Shown: positions 7,547 to 33,493, numbered from the stretch's first letter. The stretch: DNA of 33,493 bases from an uncultured virus (IMG/VR IMGVR_UViG_3300031088_000789) (IMGVR_UViG_3300031088_000789), one strand, 5' to 3'. The notes: generated by a model from the letters alone, not told the origin. Numbers and translations: made by a program.

Positions 7547-8623
7547 ATGTCAATAAATATGCGAACTGAATACGATGCCTTAATTCAAGCTTTTGTGGCC
7601 GATAATTACGAGACGCTAGCTAAGGCTAAACAATATCGCCCTGAGCGTGAACGTGAATCTTGTTGGTCTTATATTGCTGAACGAAATCAACCTACGGATA
7701 TGTACTATCTTCGTGCTAACCCTAAGTTCAGGGCTTTGGTTACAACATTTGTTGACAAATTCCTGTATCGTGAAGGATTGAAATTTCATTTACGTTTTCA
7801 CATGGCGGCTCTTGATGGTCAGTTACTGACTGATCTTATGGATAATAAAGAGAATGTTCGTGGTTACAACTATTTCAGTCGTGACAATCTAATTGAACAT
7901 TTTTCACTTCATTTGTTAATGGATGTATTTACGATCTTTATCTATATTCGTGATAAAGAAACAGGGGCTATTCACTATCATCTTTTTGCTTATGATGACA
8001 ACCGTATTGAAATTAAAGGAAACTCCACTTGTCCTACTTGTAATGCTTACTTTTCTTTACTTGTTGATTACACACAAAATGCAATCATTATTGATGATAT
8101 TATGCCAGTTGCCGATTGTGTTAAAAAGATTCCAACGCGAGTTAATGTGACTCTAAAAAGCCCTTCTGGTAAGTTGGTGTTTCTTAACGAACCTAGTCAG
8201 TTCTTTAAACATCAGCGTGAAGATAAGTATGATCTTTCTATTAACTCGACATTAGGCTGTATTGCAGAAACTAAATTCTACGCCGAGCATAATATTGGCT
8301 TCTTCTTTATTGGGAACACAACTGCTTATATCATGCAAAAAGATGGCGAAATCTTGGCTACTTTGTTTGATGAGTATAATGATAAGGAAGTGGTTAAATA
8401 CAAAGACTATACGCTTCGCGGTGATGTTTGCACGGGGGTTTGGTGGTATACCGTTCTTGACCATGACCTCTATTTGAAGCTCTGTGCCGATCATAACGTA
8501 GATCCAGCATCTATTGAACACAGTGTGGTGCAAATTAATGCCACTAAGTATAAAGTCAGTCATGGGCTGGCGGCTCATCGTAAGGGCCACCATAGAGGGG
8601 TCTATTCAAAGATTACATACTAA
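7547..8623 (+). CDS. hypothetical CxxC-containing protein, paralogue of 10727-11788
   Basis: GAGGA RBS; CPTC, SPSGKLVFLN, SINSxLGCIxET, WWYTVLD shared with 10727 ORF. Confidence 0.9.
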   Translation: MSINMRTEYDALIQAFVADNYETLAKAKQYRPERERESCWSYIAERNQPTDMYYLRANPKFRALVTTFVDKFLYREGLKFHLRFHMAALDGQLLTDLMDNKENVRGYNYFSRDNLIEHFSLHLLMDVFTIFIYIRDKETGAIHYHLFAYDDNRIEIKGNSTCPTCNAYFSLLVDYTQNAIIIDDIMPVADCVKKIPTRVNVTLKSPSGKLVFLNEPSQFFKHQREDKYDLSINSTLGCIAETKFYAEHNIGFFFIGNTTAYIMQKDGEILATLFDEYNDKEVVKYKDYTLRGDVCTGVWWYTVLDHDLYLKLCADHNVDPASIEHSVVQINATKYKVSHGLAAHRKGHHRGVYSKITY

Positions 8624-8718: not shown

Positions 8719-9594
8719 TTATTTTAGAATAAAATTCAATTTCTTATATTCTTCTTCATAATTTCTTGTTTTTATTTCATCTTGGATTTTCTTAAAATTA
8801 TCATAGACTTCTTTATTATACACTGTCATTTTAGCTACACTTGATTGGATTTTGCTATAACGATTATCTTCATCTTTCAAATCATCCGCAATTTCAATTA
8901 CTATGTTATCTTTTTCATACAAACGTTCACCAATTAACCAGCCCAACAAATTCTTATTGGTATACCCTTTATTTTTAATTGCTTTAACATATTCATTAAG
9001 GATATAATTAATAGCGTTGACATCTACAGGATCTAGACTAACGTAGAACTTCTGTGTTTTGGTTCTTAATGTTGCTTTTAATACATAACCATACGCATAG
9101 CTATATGTAACACTATATTTATCTTCGTTAACCTCAAATTCTGTTAATGGACTATCTTTGACATTAAGAGTCATCAAAACTCCATTGTTATAGAAATCCA
9201 TTTTTTTAATCAATGAAGCTTTAACTATACCAAGTGATGTGTATTCATTTCTTGGTTTTGTATCATCATCGTTGAAAAGTTCATAGAAAAATTTTTTACG
9301 ATATTCAACGGCTGTTGGATGAGAACTTCTAAAATAGAAAAAATAGTCTACTTGCTCGTTTGGCACAAAAACTGTTAATTCATCTTGTTTTCCTACTTGC
9401 TTAGTTAGCTCATTAACTGTTGGTGGCACATTATTTAGATCGTAATTTTTAAAAATGTTTGAAAACTTTTCATTCTCAGGAGCACTCATATCAATTTTAG
9501 GTTTGATTTGAATTTCGACAGCTACTGCATTCGACATCGCCATCATCGCCATGCCCATGCAACCCATGATAGTAATGATTTTTCTTTTCAGCAT
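8719..9594 (-). CDS. exported protein with signal peptide, paralogue of 9712-10590
   Basis: MLKRK + hydrophobic stretch + AVA site; QVGKQxELxVFV, LIKKMDFYxNGV, YGYVLKA shared; AGGAG RBS. Confidence 0.85.
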   Translation of the reverse strand: MLKRKIITIMGCMGMAMMAMSNAVAVEIQIKPKIDMSAPENEKFSNIFKNYDLNNVPPTVNELTKQVGKQDELTVFVPNEQVDYFFYFRSSHPTAVEYRKKFFYELFNDDDTKPRNEYTSLGIVKASLIKKMDFYNNGVLMTLNVKDSPLTEFEVNEDKYSVTYSYAYGYVLKATLRTKTQKFYVSLDPVDVNAINYILNEYVKAIKNKGYTNKNLLGWLIGERLYEKDNIVIEIADDLKDEDNRYSKIQSSVAKMTVYNKEVYDNFKKIQDEIKTRNYEEEYKKLNFILK

Positions 9595-9666
9595 TTTAAA
9601 GGCTCCTTTTATGATGGTTGTATTTTATCATGCAAAATTTTTAAACACAACATTTTTGCAATTTAT

Positions 9667-9711: not shown

Positions 9712-10590
9712 TTAGTTTTGTAGAATCTTACCCAGTAGGTGATACTTCTTTTCTTGGTCTAGTTCTTTAAAGTTTTCAACTAGCTTGTCGTAATTGTCAT
9801 ACGTCTCTTTGGTATAAAATGCCATGTTGGCTGAGTTGTCATCCATTCCAAGTAGATACGCATATTTCGAATCAGTTTTATAGTGGCTGATATTTACGAT
9901 GCTATCACCTTTAACATAGGCTGTTTCATCGTTGATGTAACCCCACAAACTGTTATATGAATAATCTTTATTTTTTACCGCTTGTTTGTATGCTCCAAGC
10001 AAGTAGTTCATTTTTTCGTCATCTGGGTCACTTTTACTTTTGATAATAGTCTGAAGTTCAGCTTTCAACACATAACCATAACCAAATGTATAGACAACGG
10101 AAATATTAGTGGATAGGTCATCGACCTTGAATTCAGTGTATGGGCTATTTTCTACATCAATCACCAGCATTACACCATTTTCATAAAAGTCCATTTTTTT
10201 GATTAATTTCATATCAACCATACCACTTTTGGGATTAACTTTGGTAGGTATTTGATTTTTTCCACTGAGTACTCCACTGTAGTGTATTTTACGATGTTCT
10301 ACTGCATCAGGATGATTACTCATGAAATAATGCAAATTCAACATGCTTTGCTCAGAAACAAAAACCTTCAGTTCACTTTGTTTTCCGACTTGGCTTGCCA
10401 TTTTTTCAAATGATGGAGATTTTTTGCCATCGTCATATACAGGTATTGGAGTGCTTAATTTTACAAACATGAGATTTTTTTGAAACGTTTGATTGACTTT
10501 CAGCATTTTCAAACGCAAGTCATCACTCGCATGAGCTAGACCACCCATCAGTAAAGAACTAATAACCAAACAGATCTTGATAAATTTCAC
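9712..10590 (-). CDS. exported protein with signal peptide, paralogue of 8719-9594
   Basis: GTG start with AGGAG RBS; MKFIKICLVISSLLMGGLAHA signal peptide. Confidence 0.85.
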   Translation of the reverse strand: MKFIKICLVISSLLMGGLAHASDDLRLKMLKVNQTFQKNLMFVKLSTPIPVYDDGKKSPSFEKMASQVGKQSELKVFVSEQSMLNLHYFMSNHPDAVEHRKIHYSGVLSGKNQIPTKVNPKSGMVDMKLIKKMDFYENGVMLVIDVENSPYTEFKVDDLSTNISVVYTFGYGYVLKAELQTIIKSKSDPDDEKMNYLLGAYKQAVKNKDYSYNSLWGYINDETAYVKGDSIVNISHYKTDSKYAYLLGMDDNSANMAFYTKETYDNYDKLVENFKELDQEKKYHLLGKILQN

Positions 10591-10726: not shown

Positions 10727-11788
10727 ATGTCAATACCTATGCAAGACCAATATAAAAACCTGTTGTCACAATTTGTAACTGATAACCTTTCTATTTTTAA
10801 AGCAAACCGCCGTTATAAAGAACCAGAAGATGGTGAAGATGATTCCAGTCTTAATTACCTTCCAGATAATAATCAAACAGCGGATGAAAATTTTATTGGT
10901 GATAGTCCACAATTTAAAGAACTTCTTAATACGTTTATGACTTCTTTTATTGAGCGTGATGATCTTGTTTTTAATTTGCAAGGACACTTCCCACAATTTG
11001 ACGGTCGCACTATGTCGGAGGTTATGGCAACTGTTCGTTTCCATGATCGAGCAAGTTTAATTGAATCATGTGCTTTCGATATGAAGTTGCAGATTGATTT
11101 GTTTAATCTTTTTTTAAGTTTATCAGGCAATGAAGATTATCATTCCTTCATGTTCTCCTATGGTAAAAATAGACTTGAATTACATGGAACGCAAGCTTGC
11201 CCATCCTGCGGTACTTATATTGCAATAGTTATTGATTACGATACAAATATGGTATGTTCATTACTAAAGAAACCTGATTGTTTATTAAAGGAACTACCAG
11301 ACACTGTTGAGGTCAACTTAGAATCTCCTTCTGGTAAGTTGGTATTCTTGAATGATCCACGTCGTTTTTTCAAAGTTAAACGTGATGATCGCCATTCTCA
11401 TTCAATCAATTCTTTGTTGGGTTGTATTGAAGAGACAAAAGCTTATGCAGAGCATAATGTTGGATTCTTCTTTATTGCTAATTCTTTACCTAATATTATG
11501 CAAAATCATGAAAAAATCTTGTTTGCATCCTATAATGACGAAGACGAAGACAGTATAGAGAAATTCAAAGACTATACTAATCTTGGGTACGTGTGTGCCG
11601 ATCTCTGGTGGTACACTGTTTTGGATTATCAGCTTTACCTTGATTTGTGTGCCTCAAAAGGTGTTAATCCTGAATCGATTGATCATACTGTTGCTGTTAC
11701 TGATCGACCTACTTTTAAGGTTGTTCATGATTTAACTGCTCATAAAGTGGGTCATCATTTTGGTGTGTTCTCGACTATAACATACTAA
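10727..11788 (+). CDS. hypothetical CxxC-containing protein, paralogue of 7547-8623
   Basis: GAGGA RBS; CPSC; conserved C-terminal half ending ITY. Confidence 0.9.
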   Translation: MSIPMQDQYKNLLSQFVTDNLSIFKANRRYKEPEDGEDDSSLNYLPDNNQTADENFIGDSPQFKELLNTFMTSFIERDDLVFNLQGHFPQFDGRTMSEVMATVRFHDRASLIESCAFDMKLQIDLFNLFLSLSGNEDYHSFMFSYGKNRLELHGTQACPSCGTYIAIVIDYDTNMVCSLLKKPDCLLKELPDTVEVNLESPSGKLVFLNDPRRFFKVKRDDRHSHSINSLLGCIEETKAYAEHNVGFFFIANSLPNIMQNHEKILFASYNDEDEDSIEKFKDYTNLGYVCADLWWYTVLDYQLYLDLCASKGVNPESIDHTVAVTDRPTFKVVHDLTAHKVGHHFGVFSTITY

Positions 11789-14931: not shown

Positions 14932-14979
14932 GTTTTTCCAAAAATGTGATTTTTAATTAAAGCCTCTTGAAAAAGGGGC

Positions 14980-15008
14980 TTGCTTCTTTTTATACTTTTT
15001 GTTAAAAT
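14980..15008 (+). promoter_or_regulatory. sigma70-like promoter of hairpin ncRNA copy 1
   Basis: TTGCTT(14980)-17-TAAAAT(15003). Confidence 0.65.
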
Positions 15009-15015
15009 CATGTCT

Positions 15016-15066
15016 TCGAAGCGGCAAAAGGCGAGCACTCAAATAAGCCTTTCCTTTTGTTTCTGC
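15016..15066 (+). ncRNA. putative small hairpin RNA, copy 1
   Basis: Stem GGCAAAAGG/CCTTTTGTT, 21-nt loop; homologue at 20303 with compensatory changes. Confidence 0.65.
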
Positions 15067-15157
15067 TCATTTCGCTTGTCAAAATGATTTACTATTGATA
15101 GACTCACCACTATCAAGATGATTCACTACCTTAACCCAGCCAAGAGGATAAAAATCA

Positions 15158-15556
15158 ATGAATCGTATTCAAAAATTTAACCGTGCTCTCCTGAAAGCTA
15201 TTGCTGCCCAAAAAATCGTTATTTCTGATCGAAACAGTGGTGCTATCCGTAATGCGGCTGTTCGTTTCAGTTTCTCGCATGAAGGTTCGAACCACTTCTA
15301 TTCCCTGTCGTCTGAGCGGAATGCTCCCGGTCTGGAACTGTTCGGCTATGATGCACCAGCAAAACTGCAACTGGTCGAATACAATGCTTCTTTCACCAGC
15401 GGCATCCATGTTGATTTGCCAGATGGTGTTGATGCTTCGGCTATCAAATACATGGAAACTTGCTCTGTCATTTCGGATGAAGATGCTGGTAAAGCCCGAG
15501 AAATATTGGCTGAGGCAGTCCATCGCTTCAATGTCGAAATGTGCATGCCACATTAA
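15158..15556 (+). CDS. hypothetical protein
   Basis: GAGGA RBS, 132 aa, terminator 15567-15594. Confidence 0.85.
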   Translation: MNRIQKFNRALLKAIAAQKIVISDRNSGAIRNAAVRFSFSHEGSNHFYSLSSERNAPGLELFGYDAPAKLQLVEYNASFTSGIHVDLPDGVDASAIKYMETCSVISDEDAGKAREILAEAVHRFNVEMCMPH

Positions 15557-15566
15557 GCAATCACTT

Positions 15567-15594
15567 AAAAAAAAGGGGGCTTCGGCCCCTTTTT
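15567..15594 (+). terminator. intrinsic terminator
   Basis: GGGGC-TTCG-GCCCC plus T tract. Confidence 0.85.
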
Positions 15595-15675
15595 ACTTTC
15601 TTTGAAATAATGATTGTTCTAAAAACTAATATTTGTTATACTTCACTCATCAAAACTAGCTTGGACTCTGTTAAA

Positions 15676-16053
15676 ATGAATTTGATTTTGGATGGACTAA
15701 TCAAACACATGGAAAATAATGCAGTTGTCATTAACTCATTCGAATCCTATTCAAATTTACCTTCGGTTGATTCAAGTAATCTCTCTACTGTCAAAGTAGG
15801 CGAAATCTTGGAGCGTCTTGCCTATGCTGATGTTAGTGTTCTTAACCGAATTATTAGTGTTAATGGAAAGGCTCGATATGACAAAAAAGATGATATTGAT
15901 GCCGCAATTGAAACGAGAGTCTTAATTTGGTTTATGTTCAAATTTGAACAAGATGGTCGCCAGATTAAAGTCACTAATCTTTCTTTGGGTACGTCTTTTT
16001 TGGCTAATAGCATGACAGCGGCTCGTCAAATCATTCGAGAAACCTACCGATAA
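15676..16053 (+). CDS. hypothetical protein
   Basis: TATACT -10, GGA RBS, ATG 15676. Confidence 0.75.
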   Translation: MNLILDGLIKHMENNAVVINSFESYSNLPSVDSSNLSTVKVGEILERLAYADVSVLNRIISVNGKARYDKKDDIDAAIETRVLIWFMFKFEQDGRQIKVTNLSLGTSFLANSMTAARQIIRETYR

Positions 16054-16132
16054 TTGTTGACCAAAAATCTTATTTTTGCTATACTTGCGTCATTAAAACA
16101 GCTACTCACTTCTTCTTTTTGTTGAGGTCTAT

Positions 16133-16408
16133 ATGAAAATCATGCTCGCTGGCAATGTGACTCATGAAATTAAAGTTACTCGGCTTACTCCGAAACTTTG
16201 GGGTGTTCGCTGCTTTACCAATGGCAAGATCAACCAAGAAATCCGCGTTCAATGTAAAGCTGACATTGGTGTAGCTTCTGCTGAAATGTTGCAGTTTGAG
16301 GATGAGTGTGGTAATCATTCCGATCAAGCTTCTGCCAGTCGTGAACGATTCAATAAAGGCCCGAAATGGCGAGCTTACCAGCGTCCACATGTAAACGTTT
16401 CGATTTAA
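16133..16408 (+). CDS. hypothetical protein
   Basis: TTGACC-17-TATACT promoter, GAGGT RBS. Confidence 0.8.
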   Translation: MKIMLAGNVTHEIKVTRLTPKLWGVRCFTNGKINQEIRVQCKADIGVASAEMLQFEDECGNHSDQASASRERFNKGPKWRAYQRPHVNVSI

Positions 16409-16421
16409 TCGAAGAAAAATC

Positions 16422-16464
16422 TTGTTTTTGATGGGATAGTTTGGTATACTTATCCCATCAAAAC
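16422..16464 (+). promoter_or_regulatory. early-type promoter inside a 13-bp inverted repeat
   Basis: TTGTTT(16422)-17-TATACT(16445), then TATCCCATCAAAAC; TTTTGATGGGATA/TATCCCATCAAAA. Confidence 0.8.
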
Positions 16465-16487
16465 AGAAACCCACACGGGGAAACATC

Positions 16488-16952
16488 ATGGAAACTATCA
16501 TCAAGTTTGAAGAAGGCAAAACCTACGCTACCCCTTCGATTGGTGACTCTTCCTACATCGTTACTGCGACCATCGTTAAACGCACCGCCAAGCGTGTAAC
16601 GTTCCAGATGAAAGGTGAAACAGAAACCCATACCAAAGGCATTTTCATCTACGAAGGCAAAGAATGCTTCTACCCGCGTGGTAATTATAGCATGTGCCCT
16701 ACCCTTCGGGCTGATGATGTGGTCGAAGAAAAGGCTCCAGTTGTTGCAAAGGCTGAAATCGAACCTTCTGACATCGTTCTTTTCCCGAACGGTGAAACCT
16801 TAGAAGACCTGTTTGTTGAAGGTGCTGGGGTTTTCACTGTTGAACAAATGGACGCCATCAAACACGCCTTGGCCGAATTGCTGATGGGTGAAGCCTTTAC
16901 TCCACAACAGCCTACCGCCAAAATCTACAACCTCGCAGACTACCGCCGTTAA
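16488..16952 (+). CDS. conserved phage hypothetical protein
   Basis: KFEEGKTY...SIGD...IVKRTAKRVT N-terminal pattern; GGGGA RBS. Confidence 0.85.
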   Translation: METIIKFEEGKTYATPSIGDSSYIVTATIVKRTAKRVTFQMKGETETHTKGIFIYEGKECFYPRGNYSMCPTLRADDVVEEKAPVVAKAEIEPSDIVLFPNGETLEDLFVEGAGVFTVEQMDAIKHALAELLMGEAFTPQQPTAKIYNLADYRR

Positions 16953-17035
16953 TTCGGCGGTTTTCTTTTAAAAATATTGTTTTTGTTTGGTAATTTTGTT
17001 ATAATTCCCCTACCAACTCGATAAAGGTTAACGCC

Positions 17036-17509
17036 ATGAGCACCTATCCAGATAATTTTGAAACTGACACCAAACTGTTCAAAGTTTCGTTTAATAAAGT
17101 TAGCTGGGGTGAGGTATGGGCCGATGGGCCAGTTTCTGCTCTCGGAAAGGCACAAGAGATGTATCCAGAATTTCCGAAAAAACTGTTTGAAGTTAAATTT
17201 GTTCGTGACCTGTATCCTGTCAACAAGGTCACCATCACCAAAATTCGCAATGTGTTGGATGCTTTTCGTATCCCTTACCAAGATCCTGCTGGCAATGAAC
17301 ACCAGTTGATTTTGAGTGGAACGGCTGACATCATCGAAGGTGCTTACGGCAATGGCGATGATAGCTGGGATTTCTTTGTGAGAGCTACGCCATCGAAACC
17401 AAGCCAACTGCTTTCTTTTAAAACGATTGCAGAGTTTGGTGAGCATCTGGCAAAGGCTTATGTTCATCAGCCTTACGATGAATTCAGTGCAGAACCTTTG
17501 CCTATCTAA
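17036..17509 (+). CDS. hypothetical protein
   Basis: TATAAT promoter, AAGGT RBS. Confidence 0.85.
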   Translation: MSTYPDNFETDTKLFKVSFNKVSWGEVWADGPVSALGKAQEMYPEFPKKLFEVKFVRDLYPVNKVTITKIRNVLDAFRIPYQDPAGNEHQLILSGTADIIEGAYGNGDDSWDFFVRATPSKPSQLLSFKTIAEFGEHLAKAYVHQPYDEFSAEPLPI

Positions 17510-17527
17510 GTAGTTCATTGCTCAATT

Positions 17528-17551
17528 AAATCCACTTCGGTGGATTTTTTT
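17528..17551 (+). terminator. intrinsic terminator
   Basis: AAATCCAC-TTCG-GTGGATTT plus T tract. Confidence 0.85.
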
Positions 17552-17617
17552 GTTTCTTTTTTATTGCTTATTCAAGCGTAGCATTGTATACTTATGCCAT
17601 TTTATAGGAGTATTACT

Positions 17618-18007
17618 ATGTCTACAACGAACACTAAGAACATTGTTGAACTGGAAGCCGCTTTTAATAAAGTGATGTCGAAATGGAACCTTGGCGTTTA
17701 TTCTGGGATTGTAGCTTCTCGTATTAAACTGGAAGACAGTTTGCCTTGGTTTGAGGTCTATGGAGAACTTCCTAAATCTAACGCTAAGAAAATTGTTCAG
17801 GATCTTGCGAATGAAATGAATATCAAGATTTTGCTGAATCGCTATGAAGTCCGTAGTGGTGAGCTAACCATTTATGGTGTTTTTGACATTGATAACAACG
17901 TCCTTGATGCACAGGGACCAACCGTTCCGCTCCCAGCCTTGTCCAATGATCCAGATTCAGCCGAATATATGGAAGACTATGGAGATCCGTTTGTGCCAAA
18001 AATCTAA
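17618..18007 (+). CDS. hypothetical protein
   Basis: AGGAG RBS before ATG 17618. Confidence 0.85.
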   Translation: MSTTNTKNIVELEAAFNKVMSKWNLGVYSGIVASRIKLEDSLPWFEVYGELPKSNAKKIVQDLANEMNIKILLNRYEVRSGELTIYGVFDIDNNVLDAQGPTVPLPALSNDPDSAEYMEDYGDPFVPKI

Positions 18008-18025
18008 AAAACATTCAAAAAAAGG

Positions 18026-18072
18026 TTGCAGCTATGGGGTAGTCTTGATATACTAACCCCATCAAAACGAAA
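18026..18072 (+). promoter_or_regulatory. early-type promoter
   Basis: TTGCAG-17-TATACT(18049)-AACCCCATCAAAACGAAAC. Confidence 0.8.
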
Positions 18073-18102
18073 CAACACAATCAAATAGTTAGGAGATACA
18101 AA

Positions 18103-18237
18103 ATGCAAGGTTCTTTCGGTGATGCAACTGAACGCTTCTCGGGCAACAAAAAGCGTGATACTGAAAAAGCACGTTTCAATAAAGCTGATAAACAGCGTCG
18201 TCAAAAACGCCGTAACCGACACAATGACGCAGATTAA
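18103..18237 (+). CDS. 44-aa Arg/Lys-rich peptide, not in ORF track
   Basis: AGGAG RBS; MQGSFGDATERFSGNKKRDTEKARFNKADKQRRQKRRNRHNDAD; own promoter and terminator. Confidence 0.8.
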   Translation: MQGSFGDATERFSGNKKRDTEKARFNKADKQRRQKRRNRHNDAD

Positions 18238-18250
18238 TATTCTGCCCAAG

Positions 18251-18277
18251 AAAGGCATCCATTAGGGTGCCTTTTTT
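18251..18277 (+). terminator. intrinsic terminator
   Basis: AAAGGCATCC-ATTA-GGGTGCCTTT plus T tract. Confidence 0.8.
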
Positions 18278-18386
18278 ATTGCTTGAAAAAACTTAAAAAT
18301 ATTGAAAATAATGCTTGTCGAATAATCTGTTTTTTGGTATTATAGTCTCATCAAAACGAAGCAACCAACCTTCTCGGAGAAACACC

Positions 18387-18830
18387 ATGACCCAAGTTAC
18401 CGCCCTCGAACGTGCTGTTATCCGTAACATCGCTGTTTCGGCTTCTGTTGAAGTGCTGGTAAAAGAAATCATCAACGGCCCGGAAACTGTCAAAGACACC
18501 CAAGTCAATGCTGTCATCCTGAACCTGAAGAAGAAAGGTTTGGTTGCTAGCGTCAACAAAGAAATCGTTCAACTGACTGTTGAAGGTCAGGAAGTTCACT
18601 CCCGTGAATTCCCTGCTGCAAAAGACCTTGACACCCTTCGCCATGAAAGCAATCTGGAACTGGCGAAAGAGCGTCCGATGTCGGTTGAAGAACTGACCCT
18701 GACCAACAAGCTCATCGAGCTTCGCAAATCCGCCAACAAAGTTCAAATCATGCTGGAATCGCTTCGCCTGAACCTGATTGCTGAAAAGGTCGTGGCCGAA
18801 GCAATGGCTGACCTGCAACTGGCCGCTTGA
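18387..18830 (+). CDS. winged-helix (MarR-like) protein, paralogue of 29176 and 30366
   Basis: TALExAV...QVxAVIxNLxKKGLV...LTxxG pattern; GGAG RBS. Confidence 0.7.
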   Translation: MTQVTALERAVIRNIAVSASVEVLVKEIINGPETVKDTQVNAVILNLKKKGLVASVNKEIVQLTVEGQEVHSREFPAAKDLDTLRHESNLELAKERPMSVEELTLTNKLIELRKSANKVQIMLESLRLNLIAEKVVAEAMADLQLAA

Positions 18831-18838
18831 TTGCTTTT

Positions 18839-18862
18839 AAAAGTGGGTTTCGACCCACTTTT
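18839..18862 (+). terminator. intrinsic terminator
   Basis: AGTGGGT-TTCG-ACCCACT plus T tract. Confidence 0.85.
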
Positions 18863-18925
18863 TGTTGCTCATTTTCTAGTTTTTTGCTATAATTATCATA
18901 TCAAAACACACAAGGATCTATCTCC

Positions 18926-19267
18926 ATGAGCAATGACCTGAAAGCCCTGTTGGTTCAACTGCAAAATGGTGAAATCGAAGCGGTTGAATACGGTGAGCCG
19001 GGACGGCCAATGGGGTTCATGAGCAGCCATCGCATTGTTTTCATTCAAACCATGGGTGGCACTCAATTTGGTCTGAAACAAGTCTTTGTCAATGGCTTGG
19101 GTTCTGGTGCGTATCTGGGCTTGGACATTGACGATGTAGTGAAAGCATCCGAAGCTCAAGTGGCCTACTACAATCGCCCACATGCAAATCCAAAAATTCG
19201 TGAAGCTGCGGCAGCACGTCGAGCAAACTGCAAATTGGAATACTTTGCTGTCCCAAAAGCTGTCTGA
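18926..19267 (+). CDS. hypothetical protein
   Basis: TGcTATAAT, AAGGA RBS. Confidence 0.8.
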   Translation: MSNDLKALLVQLQNGEIEAVEYGEPGRPMGFMSSHRIVFIQTMGGTQFGLKQVFVNGLGSGAYLGLDIDDVVKASEAQVAYYNRPHANPKIREAAAARRANCKLEYFAVPKAV

Positions 19268-19294
19268 TGGTTGTCTTTTCACATGGGAGCTATC

Positions 19295-19516
19295 ATGAAA
19301 CACTTCGTTGGCATTGAAATTCGTAATATCCAAATGGATGATGACGAATATGTCACCCGCTACGTCTCGAAAGAAACCATTATCTGGGCGTATCCTGACA
19401 CTGATTTCACCAATGATAATGATATTTTCAATAAGGCTTGCGAATGCCTTGAACATTACGAAAAAGGGGTTGTTTCGTGTGATGTAGCGAAGCCAAACGA
19501 ATACCATTACGCCTAA
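19295..19516 (+). CDS. hypothetical protein
   Basis: GGGAG RBS before ATG 19295. Confidence 0.7.
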   Translation: MKHFVGIEIRNIQMDDDEYVTRYVSKETIIWAYPDTDFTNDNDIFNKACECLEHYEKGVVSCDVAKPNEYHYA

Positions 19517-19543
19517 AAACTCAGTTTTGGCCATGAATAAAGC

Positions 19544-19590
19544 TTGCCCTAGTTGCAGGCTTTTGGTATAATTATCCCATCGAAACGAAC
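19544..19590 (+). promoter_or_regulatory. early-type promoter of thymidine kinase
   Basis: TTGCCC-17-TATAAT(19567)-TATCCCATCGAAACGAAC. Confidence 0.8.
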
Positions 19591-19604
19591 AAGGGAACAC
19601 CATC

Positions 19605-20207
19605 ATGGCTAAACTCTACTTCCGCCACGCAGTTATGAACTCCGGCAAAAGTCTCGCACTGTTGCAAGTGAACCATAACTATGTCTCCGAAGGCCGTGAG
19701 ACTGTTCTGTTCTCCCACGAAATCGACAAGCGTTTTGGTGAAGGCGTCATTGCTTCCCGCATTGCCGGTGCCAGCATCCAAGCCCCTAGCATTTCCATCA
19801 ATGACGAAATCAACCTGTTCGAAATCGTCAAGGCTAAGGTTGAAGCTGGTCAAGACATTGCTTGTGTTTTGTGCGACGAAGTTCAGTTCTACTCGGAAGA
19901 ACAAATTGACCAACTGTCGGACATCGTAGACCTGTTGGACGTGCCAGTTATTTGCTACGGCCTGAAATGCACCTTCAAGGGTGAATTGTTCGAAGCTTCG
20001 AAACGTCTCATCGAGTTGGCCGACGAAATCGAAAGTCTCGACCAAGTTTGCTGGTGCGGTTGCAAAGCTCGCATGATTTTGAAGTTCAATGCCGAAACTG
20101 GCGAAGTCATCCGCGAAGGTGGTGATGTTGAAGTAGGTGCTGAAAGCAAATACCGCTCTGTCTGCCGTAAACACTGGAAACTGGGCATGATGTTCAAACC
20201 AGCTTAA
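19605..20207 (+). CDS. tdk: thymidine kinase (type II)
   Basis: P-loop AVMNSGKS, DEVQF, VICYGL, Zn-site C-x-C and YRSVCRKHW. Confidence 0.95.
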   Translation: MAKLYFRHAVMNSGKSLALLQVNHNYVSEGRETVLFSHEIDKRFGEGVIASRIAGASIQAPSISINDEINLFEIVKAKVEAGQDIACVLCDEVQFYSEEQIDQLSDIVDLLDVPVICYGLKCTFKGELFEASKRLIELADEIESLDQVCWCGCKARMILKFNAETGEVIREGGDVEVGAESKYRSVCRKHWKLGMMFKPA

Positions 20208-20266
20208 TCGCTCTAAAATCCCACCATAGCCTCCTTAATGGGGGCTTTTCTTTTCCTTAAAAAAGC

Positions 20267-20295
20267 TTGTTTTTCTTTTGGTATTATAATATAAT
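20267..20295 (+). promoter_or_regulatory. sigma70-like promoter of hairpin ncRNA copy 2
   Basis: TTGTTT(20267)-17-TATAAT(20290). Confidence 0.7.
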
Positions 20296-20302
20296 GGCTC
20301 CA

Positions 20303-20352
20303 TCGAAGCGGCAATGAGCGAGCATCCAAGTAAGCCTTTCTCATTGTTTTGC
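20303..20352 (+). ncRNA. putative small hairpin RNA, copy 2
   Basis: Stem GGCAATGAG/CTCATTGTT, 21-nt loop homologous to copy 1. Confidence 0.65.
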
Positions 20353-20396: not shown

Positions 20397-20864
20397 ATGG
20401 AAGCTTTCAAAATCAGTAAAGTTATCCCGCAAGTTATAGATATCATCTTGTTCATCTTGGTGGCTCTGTCGATTTACTTCAAAGATAAGCTTATTGTGAG
20501 TGGCATTCTCATTGCTATTCCAACTTTGTTCATGTTTGCCGTTGTTATTCGTCAAGCTAATGACTGCTGGAAACAACAATCGCTCTACAATTTTACTATG
20601 CTGGTATCGGCAGTCAATTTGAAAATGGATTATTCCAGCCGTCTCGTGCGGGATACTATTATCTACGGCCTGCATTTCTACCTGTTCAGCCTGAATCAAA
20701 ATTATATCTACCTGCTGAGCTTTACTCTCTGCTTGGCGTTTGACCTGATGGTTTACAACGCGGCATTCAATCCCATGATGCGGAAATACATGTTGACCAA
20801 AGCACAAGAGCAAATGGAGCTGCTGAAATCGCTCCAAACTCAGGAAGGACAACCCAAACCATAA
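20397..20864 (+). CDS. integral membrane protein (several TM segments)
   Basis: AAGGTGG RBS; multiple hydrophobic stretches. Confidence 0.8.
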   Translation: MEAFKISKVIPQVIDIILFILVALSIYFKDKLIVSGILIAIPTLFMFAVVIRQANDCWKQQSLYNFTMLVSAVNLKMDYSSRLVRDTIIYGLHFYLFSLNQNYIYLLSFTLCLAFDLMVYNAAFNPMMRKYMLTKAQEQMELLKSLQTQEGQPKP

Positions 20865-20878
20865 ACACCAGTGCAATC

Positions 20879-20901
20879 AAGGGGCTTCGGCCCCTTTTTT
20901 T
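20879..20901 (+). terminator. intrinsic terminator
   Basis: GGGGC-TTCG-GCCCC plus T tract. Confidence 0.9.
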
Positions 20902-20981
20902 GTTTTCATAATTCTCATTTTTGAGTTGATTATTTTTTCATTTAGTATTATAATCATTTCATCTTAACAGGAAGCCATAGC

Positions 20982-21467: not shown

Positions 21468-21484
21468 TTTCGGTTACTATACAT

Positions 21485-21503
21485 AGGGGCTTCGGCCCCT
21501 TTT
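21485..21503 (+). terminator. intrinsic terminator
   Basis: GGGGC-TTCG-GCCCC-TTTT. Confidence 0.8.
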
Positions 21504-21559
21504 CTGTTGCTCTTTTGTAATGCTTGGTATATACTTCTCATCATATAGGAGTATTTATA

Positions 21560-28488: not shown

Positions 28489-28504
28489 CTTCTTTTTCTA
28501 TTTT

Positions 28505-28525
28505 GGGGGCTTCGGCCCCTTTTTT
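28505..28525 (+). terminator. intrinsic terminator
   Basis: GGGGC-TTCG-GCCCC plus T tract. Confidence 0.85.
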
Positions 28526-28530
28526 GTTGA

Positions 28531-29038: not shown

Positions 29039-29109
29039 CTCTTATTCTGGCGTGGGTTTTATTTTTAGCCTCTTGATTGAGGCTTTTTCTTTTTCTTATT
29101 AAAAAGGTG

Positions 29110-29156
29110 TTGACCAAAAAACTCGTTTTTGTTATACTTATCCCATCAAAACGAGA
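29110..29156 (+). promoter_or_regulatory. early-type promoter (duplicated at 30300)
   Basis: TTGACC-17-TATACT(29133)-TATCCCATCAAAACGAGA. Confidence 0.85.
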
Positions 29157-29175
29157 CAACACAGGAAATCTCGAA

Positions 29176-29451
29176 ATGACCAAGCTCAACATCACCGCTC
29201 TCGAACAAGCTGTTTTGGCTAACATCAAAAACTTCGGCGTTGGGCAAGTCATCCCTCAGAATATGCTGCAGGATGGTCCAGCCACCATCAAGCCAAACCA
29301 AGTGGGTGCTGTTGTTAACAACATGGTTGCCAAAGGTTTGATGGTTCGTAACAAAGACCTCTTCGGCACTACCGTTTCCCTGACCCGTTCGGGCAAAATC
29401 CGCACTACCAAACTGCTGCGTTCTGTGCAAAACGTTCAGCAAGCCGCCTAA
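29176..29451 (+). CDS. small winged-helix protein, paralogue of 30366
   Basis: KLNITALEQAV...KPNQVGAVVNNMVxKGL...SLTRSGK. Confidence 0.8.
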   Translation: MTKLNITALEQAVLANIKNFGVGQVIPQNMLQDGPATIKPNQVGAVVNNMVAKGLMVRNKDLFGTTVSLTRSGKIRTTKLLRSVQNVQQAA

Positions 29452-30233: not shown

Positions 30234-30299
30234 CTTAATTTCGGCTTGTTAATATTGGGGGCTTTGGCTCCCTTTTTGTCTTTCTATGAAATAAAAGGC

Positions 30300-30346
30300 T
30301 TGATCGAAAAACTCGTTTTTGTTATACTTGTCCCATCAAAACGAGA
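30300..30346 (+). promoter_or_regulatory. early-type promoter (duplicate of 29110)
   Basis: TTGATC-17-TATACT(30323)-TGTCCCATCAAAACGAGA. Confidence 0.85.
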
Positions 30347-30365
30347 TACCACAAGGATTTAAAGT

Positions 30366-30629
30366 ATGAAAAAGCTCAACATCACCGCTCTCGAACAAGC
30401 TGTTATGAGCAACATCAAATCCTTCGGTGTTGGCCAAGAAATTCCACAAAACATCATTGCCACTGCCGGTGGCATCAAGCCTAATCAAGTTGGTGCAGTT
30501 ATCAACAACATGGTTCAAAAAGGTCTGTTGGTTCGCAATAAGGATATGTTTGATACCAAAGTGAGCCTGACTCGCTCTGGTAAAATCCAAACTACCAAAA
30601 TGTTCAACAAGGTAGCACTTGCTGCCTAA
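30366..30629 (+). CDS. small winged-helix protein, paralogue of 29176
   Basis: High similarity to 29176 ORF; ends VALAA. Confidence 0.85.
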   Translation: MKKLNITALEQAVMSNIKSFGVGQEIPQNIIATAGGIKPNQVGAVINNMVQKGLLVRNKDMFDTKVSLTRSGKIQTTKMFNKVALAA

Positions 30630-32725: not shown

Positions 32726-33493
32726 ATGAGCAATGTAAATCCAACCGTAGTTGATTTTGGTGTTAGTGGTTATGTCAACACCGAAGTCGAGCTGAAAACC
32801 AGCGACAATGGCACCAAATACGTTTCTGTTCTTCTTGGCCGTGGTCAAGACAATCATGGCAACAACCTGCCTTCCGATTCGGTTGTTCTGTATGGCAAAG
32901 ATGCAGAACTCTTCGCCCTGCAAGTAGCCAAAGGCGACCTGATCCGTTTCACCAAAGTTTCTCTGTCTCGCCAAGTGCCCGAAGGCAAGACCTATGCCCA
33001 AAGTGCAAAAATCGTTGGTAAGGATTTCGTTAAAATTGGTGCGAACCTCACCGATAGCGAAAAACGCACCGTTGTTGACTTTGGGGTAAGTGGCTATGTC
33101 AACACCGATGTAGAACTGAAAGAAAGCAACAACGGCAAAAAATATGTTTCCTTGCTGCTTGGTCGTGGTAAAGATGGTCGTGGTAACAACCTGCCTTCCG
33201 ACTCGGTTGTTCTGTATGGCAAAGATGCAGAACTGTTTGCTGCACAGGTTGAGAAAGGTGCTCTCGTTCGCTTCACCAAAGTAGCACTGGGCCGTAAAGT
33301 CCCCGAAGGTAAAACCTACGCAACTTCCGTCAACCTGATTGGCAAGGACTTCGAACTTATCGGCAGAAATGCCCAAGGCAATACCGGAGCTTCGCAAAGC
33401 CCTGCTCCACAACAACAACGTCAACCGGCTGTAAACCCACAACCGGCTCCGCAACCTGACTTTGATAGCTTCGATGATGATATTCCCTTCTAA
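32726..33493 (+). CDS. ssb: single-stranded DNA-binding protein with two tandem OB folds
   Basis: Q/P-rich linker and acidic FDDDIPF tail; SSB-like VVLYGKxAE...KGxLI; 108-aa internal duplication; TTGACG-17-TAGAAT promoter. Confidence 0.8.
   Translation: MSNVNPTVVDFGVSGYVNTEVELKTSDNGTKYVSVLLGRGQDNHGNNLPSDSVVLYGKDAELFALQVAKGDLIRFTKVSLSRQVPEGKTYAQSAKIVGKDFVKIGANLTDSEKRTVVDFGVSGYVNTDVELKESNNGKKYVSLLLGRGKDGRGNNLPSDSVVLYGKDAELFAAQVEKGALVRFTKVALGRKVPEGKTYATSVNLIGKDFELIGRNAQGNTGASQSPAPQQQRQPAVNPQPAPQPDFDSFDDDIPF
32744..33364 (+). repeat. intragenic tandem duplication, 324-nt period
   Basis: Units 32744-33040 and 33068-33364; 77/99 aa identical by manual alignment. Confidence 0.9.

Follow-up and report, generated by a model that had tools for sequence, protein, structure and literature searches.

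A promoter-proximal leader hairpin with a near-constant 21-nucleotide loop in very large, T4-related phage-like genomes

We analysed a 33,493-nucleotide (nt) stretch of DNA from an uncultured virus (IMG/VR IMGVR_UViG_3300031088_000789; hereafter the window), which carries two copies of a hairpin directly behind promoters, one starting at 15016 and the other at 20303. This conserved leader hairpin of about 52 bases is a real RNA motif that has not been described before. Searches with sequence patterns and with two covariance models (R1 and R2) brought the family to nine distinct copies in four related genomes, which are very large, phage-like and related to T4. To judge by its features the hairpin is a tag carried by messenger RNAs (mRNAs) at their front end rather than a free-standing small RNA, and we put the probability that it is a cis-acting, factor-binding 5' leader of any kind at roughly 0.55. 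For now the motif is a well-supported candidate of narrow distribution, and any mechanism proposed for it is putative.

Fold, loop and distribution of the hairpin

On the plus strand, copy 1 reads TCGAAGC-GGCAAAAGG-loop CGAGCACTCAAATAAGCCTTT-CCTTTTGTT from 15016 to 15061 and copy 2 reads TCGAAGC-GGCAATGAG-loop CGAGCATCCAAGTAAGCCTTT-CTCATTGTT from 20303 to 20348. Three adjacent stem pairs differ between the two, all three in a compensatory manner, and the loops are identical at 18 of 21 positions, exactly as the initial annotation of this DNA had described them. The fold proved longer than first described, with an extra lower stem of 3 base pairs (bp), GCR/UGC, past a 2-3-nt bulge, which extends the paired structures to 15021-15066 and 20308-20352. 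The window contained two matches to a 22-nt loop pattern with up to three mismatches, and 100 shuffles contained no match at all; the 12-mer TCGAAGCGGCAA with up to two mismatches was not significant in the window on its own (2 observed versus 2.25 expected). When a covariance model based on the first three copies was run with filters off, the only sites it returned in the window were these two, copy 2 at 78.6 bits and copy 1 at 77.1 bits, with the next score at 9.9 bits. Under model R2 the scores were 78.6 bits for copy 1 and 78.0 bits for copy 2.

The alignment comprised nine sequences from the four related genomes, several of them orthologous pairs. Its consensus fold consists of the 3-bp lower stem, a 3' bulge of 2-3 nt, an 8-bp upper stem and the 21-nt loop. 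All 99 stem cells were paired, and sliding the 3' partners by 1-3 columns left pairing in only 45-61% of cells. Four pairs (10 cells) showed compensatory changes on both sides; the covariation score was 0.391 compared with 0.180 in shuffles, and none of 500 shuffles equalled it. The stem occurred in five versions (AAAAGG/CCTTTT, AATGAG/CTCATT, AATGGT/ACCATT, AAGGGG/CCCCTT and AGGGGG/CCCTTT), which varied both between and within locus types. The prediction of a structured RNA with covariation and a conserved single-stranded loop was borne out, and the wider search for homologues yielded further compensatory changes beyond the three seen in the window.

G.U pairs made up 17 of the 99 stem cells. 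Read from the complementary strand these positions would mismatch as A.C, so the hairpin belongs to the sense strand; the opposite strand formed just 7 pairs. Minimum free energies (MFE) of the RNA hairpins ranged from -11.2 to -17.1 kcal/mol. Invariant columns numbered 17 of 21 in the loop versus 11 of 22 in the stem, and the flanks of the copies were unrelated. The loop consensus was CGAGCA-YN-C(A/C)A-N-UAAGCCUUU. Because the loop is near-constant while the stem drifts with compensation, the loop would be the recognised part and the stem its scaffold.

RNAalifold proposed four additional pairs inside the loop, all at invariant bases and hence neither supported nor refuted. A pseudoknot between UAAG in the loop and CUUA 3-6 nt past the hairpin (4-6 of the nine copies) amounted to 4 bp and was not conserved in three copies. 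On geometric reasoning, a linker of 3 nt could not span the distance to the loop once the lower stem has formed, and the idea was set aside. A protein-coding reading of the hairpin was also rejected, as the element contains no start codon and no relationship was seen between the two downstream proteins of the window (E 0.007 over 34 residues).

Within viral contigs the loop pattern gave 23 matches, of which the stem was present in just two, both in a 290-kb record that is the closest relative of the window (G001). Two further scans of viral contigs yielded no hairpin genome beyond G001, and model R2 found exactly two copies over this whole record, with the next score at 13.4 bits. Metagenome contigs gave 31 pattern matches and seven real loci, namely one identical to window copy 1, the two G001 copies, and two each in contigs of 0.50 Mb and 1.86 Mb. 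The ninth distinct copy (L086:518-577, 76.7 bits) was missed by the pattern and recovered by model R2. There were 2-3 copies per genome: two in G001, two in the window, and three and at least two in the two metagenome contigs.

The strict pattern had no match in 185,579 species genomes, and the loose pattern had 29 in the same set, all of them loop-only local matches of at most 26.1 bits. Ten more distant phage relatives were collected through a conserved 146-amino-acid (aa) protein, and a search of nine of them found the hairpin in none (best score 15.6 bits); two of these relatives are T4-like phages with a Gp23 capsid gene. Among phage records, none was near-identical to the window. In agreement with the initial annotation, which recognised no known family in the hairpin, Rfam 15 gave no match at the gathering score over the whole window. 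Permissive Rfam scans of both window copies and one relative's copy returned noise, with a best score of 20.9 bits versus a gathering score of 65 and all E values above 0.19. Neither the loop string nor the contig number was found in six supplementary files of the 2023 catalogue of candidate structured RNAs from IMG/VR phages (PMC10690425); other parts of that catalogue may already list the motif.

Promoters, the generic leader and the genes behind the hairpin

The hairpin is promoter-proximal in every case, with 7 nt between the -10 element and TCRAAGC in all nine copies. The promoter geometry first reported for the window was reproduced, with 17-nt spacers and -10 elements that end at 15008 and 20295, each 7 nt before TCGAAGC. 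A consensus promoter scan contained neither promoter, because the -35 element matches the consensus at TTG alone; at copy 1 the scan listed an overlapping alternative instead (TTGAAA-18-TATACT, 14967-14996). Judging from the type of promoter, the hairpin transcripts would be expressed early.

The first seven bases, TCRAAGC, are part of a promoter-proximal leader consensus, CCCATCAAAACGA, that is common to many promoters lacking the hairpin. About 15 other plus-strand promoters in the window and 10 more in G001 carry TATAnT-nnnCCCATCAAAACGA with a short unstructured leader. In these ordinary units TATAnT-nnnCCCATCAAAACGA is followed by a short A/C-rich leader and then the ribosome-binding site, and all 12 members of the class in G001 lie on the coding strand. 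The 5' arm of the hairpin, ATCGAAGCGGCAAGGGG, resembles such an ordinary leader, for example ATCGAAACGAACAAGGG at 19572, apart from a few A-to-G changes. Since TCRAAGC belongs to the generic leader consensus and the 5' arm resembles the ordinary leader, the element is best described as a hairpin module built into the usual leader at a small number of promoters.

The promoter class as a whole (TTG-N17-TATAnT-nnnCCCATCAAAACGA(A/G)ACAAC) is conserved for about 15 nt beyond the presumed start of transcription, an uncommon trait among plain sigma70 promoters. Examples lie at 16422-16475, 18026-18079, 19544-19597, 29110-29163 and 30300-30353 in the window and at 1779, 2939, 13107 and 35675 in G001, and a promoter of the same class lies near 9650 on the minus strand of the window. 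A family of nearly identical terminators, GGGGCTTCGGCCCC followed by a T run (UUCG tetraloop), occupies 13 window sites directly adjoining the next promoter, for example 15570-15597, 20875-20902, 21480-21507 and 28500-28527. The window as a whole is built, mosaic-like, of short units that have a GGGGCTTCGGCCCC-type terminator and a promoter as their boundaries.

All nine copies are followed by a co-oriented open reading frame (ORF) that starts 18-91 nt after the hairpin, with no predicted terminator between. The terminator scan of the plus strand listed neither window copy, and the U run after the stem was absent in one copy of G001 (G001b) and in copy L086a. These results change the picture of a stand-alone unit that the initial annotation had drawn. 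A promoter-driven structured element it is, but TCGAAGC turned out to be a variant of the generic leader at ordinary promoters. The discrete small RNA of about 50 nt was not supported, as no copy has a terminator and all lead into an ORF, and the supposed U-rich end consists mostly of the 3' arm and bulge and is missing from the two relatives' copies. The reported absence of a ribosome-binding site or ORF holds inside the 46 nt, but ORFs start at 15158 and 20397 and no terminator is predicted before them. The terminator scan and the 21-nt loop also speak against a plain terminator as the identity of the hairpin.

The downstream ORFs fall into four unrelated families (types A-D; Table 1), which include a lipoprotein and a membrane protein, and their products matched no Pfam or PHROGs family beyond weak matches of the signal-peptide type. 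The ORF behind copy 2 and its counterpart after the orthologous G001 hairpin share 53% identity. The G001 ortholog of the gene at 15158 (52% identical) has an ordinary promoter, a short leader and no hairpin; the hairpin is facultative.

The type A loci showed that the hairpin is independent of any one gene. Across three genomes the 241-aa gene is intact, reduced to residues 136-241, or, in the window, reduced to its last 8 codons. In the second genome the Shine-Dalgarno sequence and ATG open another frame, and in the window the remnant codons at 15075-15098 contain the -35 element of the next gene's promoter. Promoter and hairpin are intact in all three genomes (76.7-86 bits). The deletion in the window ends a few bases past the hairpin (15069-15157 compared with L088 and L086), and neither copy 1 nor L086b still has its own ORF. 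A DNA contig of about 88% identity (from one sequencing run, X13) keeps 14940-15068, with the segments on either side replaced.

Table 1. Coordinates of the two window hairpins, their promoters and adjacent features, with the four families of downstream ORFs
Feature	Position	Strand	Description
Leader hairpin, copy 1	15016..15066	+	Type A locus; 5' tail TCGAA
Copy 1 lower stem	15021-15023 / 15064-15066	+	GCG / TGC; 3 bp
Copy 1 upper stem	15024-15031 / 15053-15060	+	Loop 15032-15052; bulge 15061-15063
Leader hairpin, copy 2	20303..20352	+	Type B locus
Copy 2 lower stem	20308-20310 / 20350-20352	+	GCG / TGC; 3 bp
Copy 2 upper stem	20311-20318 / 20340-20347	+	Loop 20319-20339; bulge 20348-20349
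Copy 1 promoter	14980..15008	+	TTGCTT-17-TAAAAT; family D13; positionally homologous to the promoters of the other copies
Copy 2 promoter	20267..20295	+	TTGTTT-17-TATAAT; family D10
Intrinsic-terminator-like hairpin of the upstream unit	14960..14981	+	9 pairs, T run; overlaps the -35 of copy 1
Gene remnant	15075..15098	+	Last 8 codons (LVKMIYY*) of the relative's 241-aa gene, the rest deleted (tblastn, L086/L088)
Proximal ordinary promoter of the next gene	15076..15104	+	TTGTCA-17-TAGACT, TG-extended; between hairpin and ORF; homologous in L086
First ORF after copy 1	15158..15556	+	132 aa, MNRIQKF..., no family
ORF after copy 2	20397..20864	+	155 aa, hydrophobic, no family
Downstream ORF, type A			241-aa protein, then MNRIQKF protein
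Downstream ORF, type B			155-158-aa hydrophobic protein
Downstream ORF, type C			107-113-aa lipoprotein with lipobox
Downstream ORF, type D			177-182-aa protein

Genomic setting

Phage-type genes in the window include those for a thymidine kinase, an RNA ligase, an HNH/Srd-like and an SSB-like protein, and the window has genes in common with T4-like phages. Apart from two sizeable minus-strand ORFs without family match (8719-9594 and 9712-10590) it is one-directional. Two sets of paralogous genes and a direct repeat were seen in it. Two paralogs (7547-8623 and 10727-11788) encode proteins of about 355 aa that both match phrog_33592 and both align with one G001 gene. A promoter-plus-gene-start repeat of 162 nt recurs at 29103-29264 and 30293-30454, 80% identical across 1.19 kb. 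A direct repeat of 261 nt with 77% identity and 324-nt spacing (32737-32997 and 33061-33321) lies in the SSB-like ORF at the window end.

G001 is an IMG/VR record of 290,157 bases with 32% G+C (loci L104-L118), and two matching hairpin loci placed it within a 1.54-Mb metagenome contig. Of its 393 ORFs of at least 100 aa, 307 lie on one strand, which also holds all 35 transfer RNA (tRNA) genes. Two of these tRNAs have the anticodon CTA, which prompted a check for TAG recoding; reading TAG as sense brought no gain in long ORFs, and the code is standard. PHROGs matched 8 of 108 G001 proteins of at least 200 aa at 1e-8, and there was no match to Gp23 or Terminase_6C in the record. Cellular-type genes (a Na+/H+ exchanger and an M17 aminopeptidase) and two TnpB genes are interspersed. 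G001 could be an island of prophage type, one section of an exceptionally large phage genome, or the product of mis-assembly.

Known systems, possible roles and rival explanations

The sense-strand fold, the selection on the loop, the fixed place at the transcript start, the association with unrelated genes and the survival without a gene together suit a tag that would be read by a sequence-specific factor. The arrangement suggests the following course of events. Transcription from the sigma70-like promoter would start about 6 nt before the element, probably at the A of CCCA where TC follows, and the first ~52 nt of the transcript would fold into an 11-bp bulged stem presenting the 21-nt loop. 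A sequence-specific trans-acting factor would dock at this loop; it is most likely one of the phage-like element's own proteins, and it would give the 2-3 hairpin-bearing transcripts of each genome a common fate. Within this cis-leader reading we tentatively consider that the factor acts co-transcriptionally, on the nascent transcript or elongating polymerase just after early promoters, in the manner of the nut and put sites of phages lambda and HK022. The outcome in such a terminator-packed region would be read-through of terminators or altered processivity. Post-transcriptional action, through control of mRNA stability or translation, is the somewhat less likely alternative within the same reading. 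Action on the nascent transcript or polymerase is favoured because the distance to the start codon varies from 18 to 91 nt and because the module survives truncation or loss of the ORF. The variable distance disfavours occlusion of the ribosome-binding site, and persistence without an adjacent ORF disfavours a gene-specific operator. This persistence would fit action on the transcription complex or whole transcript, or an RNA that is itself the product.

Lambda nutL and nutR (boxA-boxB) and HK022 putL and putR are likewise RNA signals just downstream of early promoters. They number about two per genome, act in cis on the transcribing polymerase and do so independently of the distance to a start codon, and the boxB hairpin is read through its loop by N. 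The nine copies here are comparably placed, at a fixed 7 nt after the -10 element and few to a genome. The RNAs themselves differ. Lambda boxB, to which the arginine-rich N binds, is a hairpin of 15 nt whose loop has 5 nt, in contrast to the 11-bp bulged stem and 21-nt loop here, and HK022 put consists of two stem-loops of about 70 nt, whereas here there is a single hairpin and the sequence that follows is not conserved. The hairpin has no sequence or Rfam relationship to these signals, and its match to boxA is weak and inconsistent.

Among T4 operators, the gene 43 hairpin and the gene 32 5' pseudoknot are also leader RNAs with conserved loop nucleotides bound by a phage protein, and that of gene 32 is likewise found far upstream, where the leader begins (passages of PMC3014915). 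These operators are described in the same passages as gene-specific, autoregulatory and placed at or next to the ribosome-binding site (PMC3014915). The hairpin described here differs in that it precedes four unrelated genes, neither overlaps nor abuts the ribosome-binding site (the gap to the start codon is a variable 18-91 nt) and persists without a gene.

The promoter-early/stem-loop (PeSL) cassettes of T4-like phages, reportedly also the subject of PMC2839356, provide a further comparison. In an excerpt of PMC4122927 they are short units of hyperplastic early regions, shuffled between relatives, in which a near-consensus sigma70 promoter is joined to a terminator stem-loop. The surroundings of our hairpins are similar, as terminators at 14960-14981 and 20228-20246 abut the promoters, and the first of these forms a PeSL-like terminator-promoter composite with the copy 1 promoter. 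However, the PeSL stem-loop of that excerpt (PMC4122927) is a terminator upstream of the promoter, whereas this hairpin lies downstream of it, in the transcript, has a large conserved loop and occurs at only 2-3 of many promoters. Nor does it resemble an intrinsic terminator, which has a G+C-rich stem, a short loop and a direct U tract; here the loop has 21 nt and the U run is not conserved.

Several points weigh against the cis-leader reading. Nearly every gene here has its own promoter, while a nut/put role predicts genes that depend on read-through, and the antitermination version is weakened for this reason. A boxA-like sequence after the hairpin (CGCUCUUA or UGCUCUUUA; consensus as given in part of PMC2724277) matched at 7/8 positions of CGCUCUUA in two of nine copies and at 6/8 or 7/9 in three, with poor or no matches in the rest and a poor one in the G001 copy G001a. 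The thermodynamic stability of the hairpin is unremarkable (z +0.05 to -2.7), so the case rests on covariation among nine related sequences, and because several of these are orthologous pairs the independent covariation events are few. The retained "orphan" copies could be recent deletions that have not yet decayed. No candidate binding protein was identified, an N-like protein not having been searched for. The evidence for a leader comes from DNA sequence, and the contigs from sequencing runs are DNA as well.

The hairpin might instead be released, by processing or by premature 3'-end formation, and accumulate as a trans-acting small RNA or decoy whose loop would pair with a host or phage RNA or sequester a host protein such as a defence or RNA-decay factor. 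We consider this unlikely, although the same persistence that supports the cis-leader reading fits it too, as truncation or deletion of the adjacent ORF has left promoter and hairpin whole (copy 1 and L086b). The hairpin is also the first part transcribed from strong-looking promoters. Like sibling families of trans-acting small RNAs, the family has several copies with their own promoters and one conserved single-stranded sequence on diverged stems. Unlike those families, it shows neither a terminator nor a conserved U run or other defined 3' end, and an ORF always follows. Across the window and the 290-kb G001, leaving aside the elements, no target with loop complementarity of at least 18/21 was found, and for the 13-nt loop core with up to two mismatches 6 sites were found versus 3.2 expected, which is chance, two of the six being the elements themselves. 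The missing 3'-end signal and target weaken the trans-acting version, and the hairpin is not an obvious antisense regulator of the phage-like element's own genes.

A lack of any specific function seems improbable. The hairpin would then be a 5' stabilising structure or a hitch-hiker in a mobile PeSL-like promoter cassette, with its loop kept constant by youth or gene conversion. The region is indeed a mosaic of terminator-promoter cassettes like the T4-type PeSLs (excerpt of PMC4122927), breakpoints fall at module edges and the family is limited to four closely related genomes. Yet four stem pairs are compensated and the flanks are unalignable, while 17 of 21 loop positions are invariant across paralogs of four locus types, and this contrast disfavours neutrality or simple homogenisation.

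Still less probable, and counted within the co-transcriptional share of the cis-leader reading, is mimicry of the rrn-leader antiterminator in boxB-boxA order, in which the hairpin and a UGCnCUCUUA-like sequence would recruit NusB/NusE/NusA without a phage factor. In seven of nine copies a stretch of 10 nt, CGAAGCGGCA, is identical to the E. coli rrnB leader directly upstream of boxA, a score reached by 0.3-3% of shuffles per copy. The AGCGGCAC stretch is bound by NusA (part of PMC2724277), and in L087 and L093, where CUCUUA comes after UGC, agreement with lambda boxA CGCUCUUA is 7/8. However, the match was noticed post hoc, is absent from the rrnH leader and is largely accounted for by the generic leader CATCAAAACGA when two A-to-G changes are allowed; resemblance to boxA is poor in five of nine copies and lacking in G001a. 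According to the same part of PMC2724277, rrn systems need boxA and can do without the hairpin, whereas here the loop is the conserved part. The identity between the CGAAGCGGCA sites (15017-15026 and 20304-20313 in the window; 204-213 in the E. coli K-12 rrnB leader, L134) is probably coincidental.

The least credible of the explanations, and a very remote one, is a single-stranded DNA (ssDNA) signal, either a PriA-type primosome assembly site, as the initial annotation had offered, or another replication hairpin. The hexamer AAGCGG marks PriA sites and stands beside the hairpin in eight of nine copies, the ninth having AAGCAG; a literature search for AAGCGG together with PriA terms found no paper. 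The string is explained as a variant of the generic leader CATCAAAACGA, which is found at many promoters without a hairpin and to whose consensus TCRAAGC belongs. The ssDNA folds of the two window copies had MFE values of -5.0 and -5.1 kcal/mol (z +0.40 and -0.13), no better than shuffles. The fixed distance of 7 nt from a promoter, on the sense strand, in all nine copies counts against a DNA site as well, and the 17 G.U cells favour RNA over DNA.

It is possible, though less likely than not, that very large T4-related elements use the hairpin as a new type of promoter-proximal signal. The hairpin would then be a leader tag that can be moved from gene to gene, and through its invariant 21-nt loop it would recruit a dedicated factor to reprogram the polymerase or transcript, as an independently evolved analogue of nut/put, or else it would be a released decoy. 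If true, the former would be a nut/put-like signal in a lineage that is not known to use RNA-based antitermination. Textbooks present the T4-type phages as the model of early control through promoters, terminators and protein factors, and neither in the literature searched nor in Rfam was there a description of an RNA signal at the start of T4-type early transcripts. A portable, loop-specific tag would point to a new RNA-binding regulator and to a compact, transplantable control element.

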